From the NCBI RefSeq assembly GCF_036507355.1, contig NZ_AP027877.1: 64,000 bases of DNA. One strand, 5' to 3'. The notes under the pieces were generated by a model. It saw only the letters and a program-made list of their open reading frames with translations, was not told the DNA's origin and did no database searches. Source of the DNA: Escherichia coli (GTDB lineage Bacteria; Pseudomonadota; Gammaproteobacteria; Enterobacterales; Enterobacteriaceae). The position numbers were made by a program, and so were the translations under genes. Below, piece after piece: positions 4,777 to 56,567 of this stretch. Position 1 is the stretch's first letter, and each line of letters opens with the position of its first letter.

Positions 4777-4932
4777 AGATAGTCGAATGGTGGGGAAAAG
4801 TCACTCGAATTACGCCTAATGTGCAGGATGCGTCATTTTACGCCTAATTCCACCGACATAGAGTTGCTTGCACAGTAAGCTCTGACTATGTCATCAGGTT
4901 TACAAAGTTAAATTGAGGGATGCCTGAATAGC

Positions 4933-4959
4933 AAAAAAGCGTCTTTAGGGCGCTTTTTT
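4933..4959 (-). terminator. duplicated copy of the lysT-operon terminator hairpin
   Basis: aaaaaagcgtctttagggcgctttttt; near-identical to the hairpin at 5089-5115. Confidence 0.6.
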
Positions 4960-4963
4960 ACAT

Positions 4964-4980
4964 TGGTGGGTCGTGCAGGA
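4964..4980 (-). repeat. tRNA-Lys 3'-end fragment (17 nt) within a duplicated terminator unit
   Basis: tggtgggtcgtgcagga identical to the 3' end of the tRNA-Lys genes, followed by a non-tRNA stretch tgactcgcttcgctcgccct... Confidence 0.6.
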
Positions 4981-5088
4981 TGACTCGCTTCGCTCGCCCT
5001 TCGGGCCGTCGCCGCGAGCGGCTCCGTTGTTTCGCTGCGCTCAACTCGAACCTGCTGCAGGTTCGAATCTTTGAATATCTCAGATAGC

Positions 5089-5115
5089 AAAAAAGCGCCT
5101 TTAGGGCGCTTTTTT
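5089..5115 (-). terminator. intrinsic terminator of the lysT tRNA operon
   Basis: aaaaaagcgcctttagggcgctttttt hairpin immediately 3' of the last tRNA on the minus strand. Confidence 0.75.
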
Positions 5116-5119
5116 ACAT

Positions 5120-5195
5120 TGGTGGGTCGTGCAGGATTCGAACCTGCGACCAATTGATTAAAAGTCAACTGCTCTACCAACTGAGCTAACGACCC
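5120..5195 (-). tRNA. lysQ: tRNA-Lys (UUU)
   Basis: 76-nt exact reverse complement of the E. coli tRNA-Lys sequence including 3' CCA. Confidence 0.95.
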
Positions 5196-5228
5196 CTTGC
5201 GGGATTATGCTGCTTTAATCATTCAGGA

Positions 5229-5304
5229 TGGTGGGTCGTGCAGGATTCGAACCTGCGACCAATTGATTAAAAGTCAACTGCTCTACCAACTGAGCTAACG
5301 ACCC
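5229..5304 (-). tRNA. lysZ: tRNA-Lys (UUU)
   Basis: 76-nt tRNA-Lys sequence. Confidence 0.95.
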
Positions 5305-5352
5305 ATACGGGTGTTACCTGAAAGATTTCTACTCGGAACCAATCTTTAAAAT

Positions 5353-5369
5353 TGGTGGGTCGTGCAGGA
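5353..5369 (-). repeat. tRNA-Lys 3'-end fragment (17 nt) in the lysY-lysZ spacer
   Basis: second copy of tggtgggtcgtgcagga plus the same tgactcgcttcgctcgccct-cgggccg continuation seen at 4964. Confidence 0.6.
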
Positions 5370-5450
5370 TGACTCGCTTCGCTCGCCCTACGGGCCGTTG
5401 CTGGCGCAACGTTATCCTTCACGCTTAACATCTGAGTTTGATGTTAAAAT

Positions 5451-5526
5451 TGGTGGGTCGTGCAGGATTCGAACCTGCGACCAATTGATTAAAAGTCAAC
5501 TGCTCTACCAACTGAGCTAACGACCC
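5451..5526 (-). tRNA. lysY: tRNA-Lys (UUU)
   Basis: 76-nt tRNA-Lys sequence. Confidence 0.95.
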
Positions 5527-5529
5527 GAG

Positions 5530-5605
5530 TGGTGGGTGATGACGGGATCGAACCGCCGACCCCCTCCTTGTAAGGGAGGTGCTCTCCCAGCTGAGCTAAT
5601 CACCC
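5530..5605 (-). tRNA. valZ: tRNA-Val (UAC)
   Basis: 76-nt reverse complement of E. coli tRNA-Val (GGGTGATTAGCTCAGCTGGGAGAGCACCTCCCTTACAAGGAGGGGGTCGGCGGTTCGATCCCGTCATCACCCACCA). Confidence 0.95.
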
Positions 5606-5656
5606 GATACTGCGCTGGATACTACAAACTACTTCCACCGAACCCACCGTAATTAG

Positions 5657-5732
5657 TGGTGGGTCGTGCAGGATTCGAACCTGCGACCAATTGATTAAAA
5701 GTCAACTGCTCTACCAACTGAGCTAACGACCC
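5657..5732 (-). tRNA. lysW: tRNA-Lys (UUU)
   Basis: 76-nt tRNA-Lys sequence. Confidence 0.95.
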
Positions 5733-5734
5733 GG

Positions 5735-5810
5735 TGGTGGGTGATGACGGGATCGAACCGCCGACCCCCTCCTTGTAAGGGAGGTGCTCTCCCAGCTGAG
5801 CTAATCACCC
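5735..5810 (-). tRNA. valT: tRNA-Val (UAC)
   Basis: 76-nt tRNA-Val sequence. Confidence 0.95.
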
Positions 5811-5845
5811 GATACTACGCTGGATACTACAACTAACTAGGTTAG

Positions 5846-5921
5846 TGGTGGGTCGTGCAGGATTCGAACCTGCGACCAATTGATTAAAAGTCAACTGCTC
5901 TACCAACTGAGCTAACGACCC
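5846..5921 (-). tRNA. lysT: tRNA-Lys (UUU)
   Basis: 76-nt tRNA-Lys sequence; first gene of the operon on the minus strand. Confidence 0.95.
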
Positions 5922-6085: not shown

Positions 6086-6877
6086 TTACATCGCGTTCAG
6101 ACGTTTTTGTGCCTGTTTAGCGCCATCAGTACCAGGGTATTTACTGATAACCTGCTGGTATACGGCTTTCGCTTTTGCGGTGTCACCTTTGTCCTGCATG
6201 ATGACGCCGACTTTAAACATCGCATCTGCAGCCTTTGGTGACTTCGGATAGTTTTTCACTACCGAAGCAAAATAGTACGCCGCATCATCTTTTTTACCCT
6301 TGTTGTAGTTTAACTGACCCAGCCAATAATTGGCGTTTGGCAGGTAAGTTGAATCAGGGTAATTTTTGATGAAATTCTGAAATGCCACCATTGCGTCATC
6401 CTGGCGGGATTTATCCTGCACCAGCGCAATAGCTGCATTGTAATCCGTGTTTGCATCACCGCTTTTCACCGGCGCGCCAGCATTCGCAGTACCAGCATCA
6501 GCTGTCGGCGTCGTTGATGCCGCCGCACCGCTTTGATCACCGCTGGTTGATTGCGCCGCTGCACCACCGCTGCTGAGGCTGTCGATCTGCAACAGGATCT
6601 GCTTTTGCCGCTCCACGACCTGATTCAGTTGATACTGATTTTCCTGAATCTGACCACGCAGGGAATCAATATCGGATTGATTATCAGAGAGTTGTTGCTG
6701 GAGTTGGGTTAAAAGCTGGCTGTGAGCATTAGAAATACGCTCAAGTTGAGTGACGCGGTCTTCGACCGAGCCTGAGCCGACACTACTGATTGGTGCCTGA
6801 GCAAAAGCGGCCCAGGGGGCCGCTATACCAACCAGTAACGACAGACTCAATAGTTGATGTCTGAAGTTACTGCTCAT
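6086..6877 (-). CDS. cpoB: cell-division coordinator CpoB (YbgF), TPR-repeat periplasmic protein
   Basis: 263-aa ORF with signal peptide, coiled-coil and TPR region; last gene of the tol-pal cluster. Confidence 0.9.
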   Translation of the reverse strand: MSSNFRHQLLSLSLLVGIAAPWAAFAQAPISSVGSGSVEDRVTQLERISNAHSQLLTQLQQQLSDNQSDIDSLRGQIQENQYQLNQVVERQKQILLQIDSLSSGGAAAQSTSGDQSGAAASTTPTADAGTANAGAPVKSGDANTDYNAAIALVQDKSRQDDAMVAFQNFIKNYPDSTYLPNANYWLGQLNYNKGKKDDAAYYFASVVKNYPKSPKAADAMFKVGVIMQDKGDTAKAKAVYQQVISKYPGTDGAKQAQKRLNAM

Positions 6878-6886
6878 GCAATTCTC

Positions 6887-7432
<546 letters not shown>

Positions 7433-36584: not shown

Positions 36585-36702
36585 CGCCTGATGCGCTGCG
36601 CTTATCAGGCCTACGGGTAATGACTTGTAGGCCGGATAAGACGTTCACGCCGCATCCGGCACTGGTTGCCTGATGCGACGCTTGCGCGTCTTATCAGGCC
36701 TA
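36585..36702. repeat. REP/BIME palindromic repeat cluster between sucA and sdhB
   Basis: several gcctgatgcg...cttatcaggcctacg units in alternating orientation. Confidence 0.7.
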
Positions 36703-54044: not shown

Positions 54045-54183
54045 ACCGATGCCTGATGCGACGCTTAACGCGTCTTATCAGGTCTACGTATTTCCTGCAA
54101 TTTATTGAATTTGCACAAATTTGTAGGCTGGATAAGGCGTTTACGCCGCATCCGGCATCTGGGCTCGATTGCCTGACGCGTCT
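54045..54183. repeat. REP/BIME palindromic repeat cluster between dtpD and phrB
   Basis: gcctgatgcgacgcttaacgcgtcttatcaggtctacg and related units. Confidence 0.7.
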
Positions 54184-56109: not shown

Positions 56110-56339
56110 TACTGCTCCTGAGATATTAACAGGAGTAAGTGTAGACGTTGGGAAATGATTTTTGTGAAGTTAATCCGCTAGCAGGGCAAGATTACGAAAG
56201 CGCGCTCCCCGCAAGCAACTCATCAAGGTAGTTAATCATGGCTTAACACGATATTACGCCAGAAGTCACCATTTCCAAAACACAGCGCCGCTATAAAGTC
56301 GGCTATGTCAGAGCCCGCCACATAAACAGCAAAACCTAC

Positions 56340-56567
56340 ATGACCACGTACTACTCACGACACCCCTGCCTGAACCTTAAGGGCGACTGGCTGAAAGAGG
56401 CCGGATTTGATACCGGGCGGGGTGTCACGGTGAAGATTTCGGAGGGGTGCCTGACCATTATCGCTGACAGTGACGAGGTGCAGGAGCTGCGGGAGGAACT
56501 TTATCAGGTTAAACAGGTGGTTAAGGGGATACGGAGCGGGATGTTTAGTGTGCTGGACGAGAGTTAA
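56340..56567 (+). CDS. SymE-family (type I toxin-antitoxin toxin-like, AbrB/SpoVT fold) protein homologue
   Basis: 75-aa ORF; HPCLNLKGDWLKEAGFDTGRGVTVKISEGCLTIIAD resembles the core of E. coli SymE ([35 protein letters not shown]). Confidence 0.65.
   Translation: MTTYYSRHPCLNLKGDWLKEAGFDTGRGVTVKISEGCLTIIADSDEVQELREELYQVKQVVKGIRSGMFSVLDES

Follow-up and report, generated by a model that had tools for sequence, protein, structure and literature searches.

The lysT tRNA operon of this Escherichia coli strain raises the question of why pieces of tRNA-Lys and a second copy of the terminator lie among otherwise intact tRNA genes in the 64,000-nucleotide stretch of contig NZ_AP027877.1 that was analyzed here (the window). 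The operon (5120..5921, minus strand) comprises five tRNA-Lys(UUU) and two tRNA-Val(UAC) genes, as called by ARAGORN and matched by the Rfam tRNA model, and it is placed between cpoB (upstream) and nadA (downstream), with the gene order and flanks of K-12. The 17-mer TGGTGGGTCGTGCAGGA occurs seven times in the window, against 0.00 expected from 100 shuffles, with five copies inside tRNA-Lys genes and two orphans at 4964-4980 and 5353-5369. The identity of the orphans with tRNA-Lys covers 18 nt, ATCCTGCACGACCCACCA on the coding strand, which corresponds to tRNA positions 59-76; an earlier note on this DNA, which described two extra tRNA-Lys 3' ends lacking the rest of the tRNA, was therefore correct except for their length, given as 17 nt. 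That note also described a shared non-tRNA sequence beside the orphans. Such a sequence is present, as part of a 57-nt stretch common to both (4956-5012 and 5345-5401; 93% identity; repeat family D4), but on the transcribed minus strand it precedes the tRNA fragment and does not follow it. The terminator region forms a 54-nt direct repeat (4928-4981 and 5084-5137; 98% identity; repeat family D3) with a spacing of 156 bp, so that the terminator does occur twice as had been claimed, although the two copies are not adjacent and one of the two units lies between them. Together they make up a tandem repeat with a 156-bp period and ~1.35 copies (4928..5137, minus strand), in which the period contains the 18-nt tRNA end, ATGT, the terminator, and an RtT body. 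The neighbors of the operon are pnuC, nadA, cpoB, pal, and tolB, among which there is no integrase, phage, or mobile gene beside or between the repeats, in agreement with the earlier note, and no similarity to phages was detected.

Each of the two orphan ends coincides with the 3' terminus of a match to the Rfam family RtT (RF00391). The match at 5353-5519 (minus strand; unit B) scores 54.4 bits, and the match at 4964-5095 (minus strand; unit A) scores 51.5 bits, compared with a gathering score of 45. The 5' part of the Rfam model is stretched into lysY by way of a 44-nt insertion, and the true extent of unit B is therefore 5353-5450. Both units lie on the same strand as a tRNA gene and downstream of it, unit B after lysY and unit A after lysQ and its terminator; both end in the last 18 nt of the upstream tRNA, within the ~18 to 19 nt of the family; and both have the conserved body structure described below. 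The lysT units are an already known kind of element at a known place, and the doubled terminator and the orphan tails are the ends of two RtT copies, real but ordinary. In RefSeq genomes, PGAP assigns the label "RtT sRNA" to the trailer copy behind lysQ only, and the short-form units of the spacers carry no annotation, possibly because their match overlaps a tRNA. The joint account, in which RtT repeats in the lysT operon are gained and lost by way of their repeats and share the fate of trailer RNA, is given a probability of about 0.78. Elsewhere in the window, the Rfam scan gave matches above threshold to the CpoB/ybgF thermometer (6848-6986, minus strand), isrA (56309-56437, minus strand), naRNA4 (36630-36700, plus strand), and ES036 (54080-54122, minus strand).

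Unit B (5353..5450, minus strand; Rfam, 54.4 bits; body model R1, 45.2 bits) is a short-form RtT-like unit that occupies most of the lysY-lysZ spacer and has the sequence of the K-12 lysY-lysZ unit. In the direction of transcription, it consists of a 5' hairpin (5425-5447), the outer-stem 5' strand CGTGAAGGAT (5414-5423), hairpins H1 (5396-5411), H2 (5385-5395; GCCC-GUA-GGGC), and H3 (5376-5382; GCGAAGC), and the 18-nt tRNA-Lys 3' end (5353-5370). The strand CGTGAAGGAT pairs with ATCCTGCACG of the tail, and ACCCACCA stays single stranded. In the centroid fold, the 5' hairpin, the outer stem, H1, and H2 are formed (z = -3.55).

Unit A (4964..5083, minus strand; Rfam, 51.5 bits; model R1, 65 bits) is a trailer-form RtT unit situated between the two terminators. 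It begins with an inverted copy of the tRNA-Lys T-arm (5057-5069), followed by a direct copy of the 5' half of the T-arm, GCAGGTTCGA (5046-5055), the four-hairpin body (4981-5046), and the 18-nt tRNA-Lys 3' end (4964-4981). The hairpins of the body are H0 (~5029-5045), a variant of H1 (~5007-5026), H2 (4996-5006), and H3 (GCGAAGC; 4987-4993). The outer-stem 5' strand was sought in unit A by a position-anchored test and is absent, and the overall fold of the unit is no better than those of shuffled sequences (z = -1.25). An arginine-rich frame resembling tpr (RRRPEGRAKR) is also seen in unit A (4958-5044, minus strand), with TTG as its sole start; its K-12 counterpart lies at locus L003, 1388-1477 (minus strand), and the ATG of the tyrT copies comes from GGATGAGAA, which is missing in unit A.

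The two terminator copies that enclose unit A, each with its ATGT linker, have the fold and the U6 run of intrinsic terminators, and they were missed by a simple scanner because A and T runs extend the stem. Copy 1 (5084..5119, minus strand; hairpin, 5089-5115) directly follows lysQ, folds with -19.1 kcal/mol (z = -5.75), and is the working intrinsic terminator of the operon; the identical sequence of K-12 has been taken as the operon terminator there (PMC4176162). Copy 2 (4928..4963, minus strand; hairpin, 4933-4959) follows unit A and folds with -12.3 kcal/mol; a G-to-A change in this strain breaks one pair of its stem and weakens the hairpin, whereas the K-12 copy is intact.

The constraint on the body was assessed with related units gathered by a 19-mer from the body, of which 59 distinct cores and 38 distinct long forms were aligned. 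In the 38 long forms, 94% of the cells of a four-hairpin model are paired, and 11 pairs show compensatory changes, a number reached in none of 500 shuffles, while slid controls gave at most 4. In H3, four of five pairs have compensatory changes, H0 switches among G-C, C-G, and U-A, and the loops are mostly of the GNA type. This covariation strongly supports a structural constraint on the RtT hairpin body, the layout of which differs from the pairing in the consensus line of Rfam. A closing stem formed by a terminal inverted repeat, GACTCG...CGAGTC, was also considered and rejected in favor of hairpin H0, as 76% of its cells are paired and 484 of 500 shuffles are as high. For the outer stem, cognate specificity was evaluated with the position-anchored test, given that a free search for the best 12-nt complement had too high a background. 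Out of six possible pairs, the 5' strand forms 5.1 with the cognate and 3.3 with noncognate tails for Lys, 5.7 versus 3.1 for Tyr, and 5.0 versus 3.4 for Arg; the signal for Pro is weak.

The body recurs across Enterobacterales, and in many genera its tails follow the neighboring gene. The last 18 to 19 nt of the upstream tRNA are reproduced in 66 of 68 units, a count that covers those of 77 units for which upstream DNA was available, and the two exceptions, one Klebsiella Lys unit and one Citrobacter Tyr unit, share 11 to 12 nt only. These 68 units follow tRNA-Lys-UUU (28), Tyr (20), Arg-ACG (9), Pro-CGG (8), Pro-UGG (2), and Arg-CCG (1), and the match to the cognate tRNA also holds where the tRNA of a species differs from the E. 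coli sequence. The agreement in 66 of 68 units indicates that the junction is nearly always in the T-loop and that the tails evolve in concert with the neighboring gene. The arrangement of tRNA-Lys, terminator, unit, and terminator is present after the last tRNA-Lys gene in Klebsiella, Citrobacter, Enterobacter, Pluralibacter, and Erwinia. In the valU-valX-valY-lysV operon of K-12, the lysV trailer likewise carries a terminator, a trailer-form RtT, and a terminator, nearly base for base as behind lysQ, and this module (locus L130, 630-820) has no annotation in the K-12 record. The recurrence of the module from K-12 lysV to Erwinia indicates that the arrangement is old and not a recent accident.

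Among known elements, the closest comparison is the RtT of tyrT-tyrV (rttR), on which the family was founded and with which the lysT units share a homologous hairpin body, a same-strand site behind a tRNA gene, a cognate 3' end, and a tandem arrangement that includes trailer sequence. The Lys units differ in the tail and the outer stem, which come from tRNA-Lys instead of tRNA-Tyr, and in score, with 133 to 137 bits for the four K-12 tyrT copies and 51 to 54 bits for the Lys units. Compared with rttR, unit B is short, lacking H0 and the 5' half of the T-arm, and unit A lacks the outer-stem 5' strand; the ATG of the tpr ORF of rttR is not conserved in the Lys units. The classical repeats downstream of tyrT and tyrV are 178 bp long, and each contains the last 19 nt of tRNA-Tyr. 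They follow the same logic of a period that runs from a tRNA 3' end through the trailer to the next copy of the 3' end, which implies that copy number can be changed by unequal crossing-over. The lysT repeat differs in its period of 156 bp, its ~1.35 copies, and the presence of an intrinsic terminator in each period.

The comparison of the operon across E. coli strains that the earlier note called for shows that the unit sites are polymorphic and that units are gained or lost whole. The K-12 operon has five units (after lysT, lysW, lysY, lysZ, and the lysQ terminator), whereas the present strain has two. The three differences between them are exact indels of 98 to 100 nt, each consisting of a body and one copy of the 18-nt repeat, and all five unit sites were found in both states among the sampled strains. 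The trailer unit and one tRNA-Lys gene are missing from O157:H7, and strain E50 carries none of the units. The unit-less allele, found in O157:H7 and E50, consists of lysQ, one terminator, and the TTCAGGCATC flank, which is exactly the product predicted from recombination between the 54-nt repeats, since this removes unit A precisely. Among 5,426 complete E. coli genomes, a 256-nt site-specific query located unit A between lysQ and nadA in 2,510 (~46%), and the unit-less lysQ-nadA junction was found in 2,908 of the 5,426, so that the two counts together approximate the whole collection. For unit B, a rough junction test gave ~2,635 genomes. Other short junction queries were confounded by the joining of nearby pieces and by the second trailer module, after K-12 lysV. 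In E. coli IH5, a stretch near xapR matches the operon query without annotated tRNAs, unlike the K-12 valU operon at that place.

Because direct repeats bracket each unit, whole units can be gained or lost precisely. In each element, a cassette of consecutive small hairpins, H0 to H3 (without H0 in the short form) and mostly with GNA-type loops, takes the place of the T-loop in a truncated tRNA-Lys copy, which is why positions 59-76 of the tRNA form the end of the element. In the proposed mechanism, the direct repeats undergo homologous recombination, slippage, or gene conversion, by which whole units are added or deleted and the tails of the units are kept identical to the local tRNA; repeat-mediated exchange would thus give rise to the copy number differences between strains. 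Repeat-mediated recombination accounts for gain and loss and does not account for the joining of one body to six tRNA tails. For each unit there are strains that do without it, which speaks against an essential role.

The fate of the transcribed units is suggested by work on K-12, in which the operon gives a single ~1,100-nt transcript (Agrawal, Mohanty and Kushner 2014, PMC4176162); this size fits termination right after lysQ, as we infer from the size itself. Removal of the terminator by RNase P has been demonstrated for lysV, whose terminator is identical, and is presumed for lysQ; the enzyme then proceeds 3' to 5' along the transcript (PMC4176162). In K-12, the long spacers are treated as 3' trailers of the Lys pre-tRNAs that undergo degradation, with trimming by RNase II and PNPase and possible internal cuts by RNase E (PMC4176162). 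By extension from K-12, unit B would be cotranscribed in the 3' trailer of lysY and removed during tRNA maturation. Unit A, lying beyond the working terminator, would be reached by read-through only, and the second terminator would act as a backstop before nadA. Northern blots of wild-type K-12 with oligonucleotide probes to the spacers revealed few intermediates, and no stable spacer RNA was reported (PMC4176162), which counts against the release of a small RNA like that of tyrT rtT from the Lys units.

The reading just given leaves the source of the body aside, and one alternative, which we regard as possible but with the odds well against it, addresses this directly: the body may be a mobile hairpin cassette of the REP/BIME type, domesticated or decaying, that inserts at or beside the terminal helix of stable-RNA genes and then spreads locally through recombination. 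The joining of one body to six tRNA species is consistent with this reading, as is its attachment to 5S rRNA. In Siccibacter colletis, an RtT-type body lies just downstream of 5S rRNA at three loci (L123, 121-184; L125, 9989-10052, minus strand; L126, 264-327), scoring 57.3 bits with our own model and 34 bits with Rfam RtT, below the threshold, and it terminates not in a tRNA tail but in a duplicate of the 3' end of 5S rRNA (AACTGCCAGGCAT with trailer). In addition, an intergenic repeat of ~76 nt, often in two or three tandem copies, has the H0-H1-H2-H3 layout and the RtT core sequence without being attached to a tRNA end; it is dispersed away from tRNA genes in Alcanivorax sp. 24 (L074 to L094), Salinicola (L096), a Pseudomonas MAG (L107), and Alishewanella (L098). 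The cassettes of the Alcanivorax type score 21 to 33 bits over the full model length, part of which is built in, as the dispersed repeats were found through the 19-mer of the body, and an Rfam scan of two Alcanivorax loci (L078 and L085) and of the Pseudomonas locus gave no match. The body is oriented opposite to the host RNA gene in one MAG, and a similarity of rtT to BIME-like elements has been noted before (PMC2965389). With REP/BIME elements, the lysT units share small GC-rich hairpin modules in transcribed intergenic DNA that are strain variable and sometimes in tandem. However, the E. coli loci examined have the cassette only beside the cognate stable-RNA gene and capped by its 3' end, and the 64-kb window has two body matches only, both within the operon, and thus no dispersed copies. 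Against mobility, neither terminal inverted repeats nor a target duplication was found, the closing stem considered above being unsupported by covariation, and no transposase is linked. The enterobacterial units also speak against it, as all 68 of the 77 for which upstream DNA was available lie behind the cognate gene and on its strand. Tentatively, and at low probability, RtT may not be peculiar to tyrT and could instead represent one form of a four-hairpin cassette with GNA-type loops that is widespread in gammaproteobacteria and is capped by the 3' strand of the terminal helix of its host stable RNA; with the same reserve, such a cassette would span six tRNA species with a break in the T-loop, 5S rRNA, and free dispersed tandem repeats.

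In a Holophagaceae MAG (L016, 8376-8706), a minus-strand gene resembling a tRNA or tmRNA is followed by a hairpin, and a copy of the last 20 nt of the gene lies ~300 nt further on. An RtT-type body on the opposite strand (53.8 bits) is situated in between, inside a 12-bp outer stem.

RNAs derived from tRNA spacers can be regulatory, as is the case for the 3' external transcribed spacer of glyW-cysT-leuZ. This RNA resembles the RtT units as a non-tRNA by-product of the processing of a tRNA operon transcript, and it has no sequence relationship to them. A further reading is that the lysT units yield a functional mimic of the tRNA end, a released RtT-Lys RNA with a CCA tail on a stem. Such an RNA, working either in trans or in cis, might contribute to tRNA processing or, as has been suggested for the RNA from tyrT, to the stringent response. 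We regard this reading as unlikely. The conserved covarying structure and the outer stem that tracks the cognate tRNA are what such a role would call for, and RtT-family RNAs have been detected by Northern blotting in Actinobacillus and are differentially expressed in Klebsiella. For the tyrT rtT RNA itself, secondary citations report that it arises by processing and that it has a link to how cells respond when amino acids are limiting. A regulatory role for the Lys units, such as a tyrT-like effect under amino-acid limitation, might be proposed by homology only. Each Lys unit is missing in some healthy strains, however, and one sampled strain has none in its spacers; the absence of a reported stable spacer RNA in wild-type K-12 (PMC4176162) and the strong terminator that precedes unit A also count against a released functional RNA.

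The earlier note viewed the fragments as scars of duplication or recombination, and in its strict form, that of neutral leftovers of unequal crossing-over among tRNA-Lys genes with no constrained sequence of their own, this reading is improbable. Part of it stands, as the fragments are copies of the tRNA-Lys 3' end whose number has been altered between strains by recombination at repeats. The units are individually dispensable and strain variable, deletion-promoting repeats bracket them, and no stable product was found in wild-type K-12 (PMC4176162), all of which neutral scars would also explain. What does not stand is the view of the fragments as incidental scars, given that they are the 3' ends of members of a curated family, and the ~30-nt non-tRNA sequence beside them belongs to a conserved run of hairpins whose base changes are compensatory. 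The body is common to the Tyr, Pro, and Arg operons and to distant genera, and the trailer module has persisted from Escherichia to Erwinia despite the deletion-prone repeats that flank it, neither of which is expected of neutral debris.

The reading of the units as integrative-element remnants, in which old attR-like sites were left by the integration of a phage or island into tRNA-Lys and then decayed, is largely refuted and has very little probability left, because, although integrases that target tRNA genes typically duplicate the segment from the T-loop to the 3' end and the junction here is nearly always in the T-loop, 18 to 19 nt from the end, the surroundings contain neither an integrase nor a mobile gene, a comparison with 50,697 phage records showed no similarity, the "inserts" are merely 98 to 156 bp and recur behind nearly every K-12 tRNA-Lys, the sequence adjacent to the junction is not T-loop-like, contrary to what a site-specific crossover requires, and the trailer duplication runs 36 nt past the tRNA end. 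The units thus resemble tRNA att sites in having a direct repeat of the tRNA 3' end from the T-loop, and they differ from them in lacking an integrase, cargo, and phage similarity and in having repeats that bracket ~100 to 156 bp. In the sensitive BLAST search of the trailer unit against the phage records, by which a phage or island origin was rejected, only a misfiled Salmonella contig and two tiny fragments were returned. The contig, a chromosomal one of 515 kb from Salmonella Infantis (AFYI01000003.1) filed within the phage collection, carries a tRNA-Pro gene and, behind it, a ~169-bp tandem of two annotated RtT units, both of which have a terminator of their own.

On the RtT account, the apparent pseudo-tRNA fragments and the doubled terminator of the lysT operon should be annotated as RtT-family units and not as signs of island integration or assembly error, and these units are one reason why the operon differs in length between E. 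coli strains. If the wider view of the cassette is true, the lysT units would be products of a process that could be a mobility recognizing hairpins, or template switching or conversion at the ends of stable-RNA genes. How one cassette came to be capped, in modular fashion, by the tails of many stable RNAs is the sole part of the finding that might repay more work, and the natural alleles, with 0 to 5 units per operon, are ready material for testing the role of the cassette and the acquisition of its tails.
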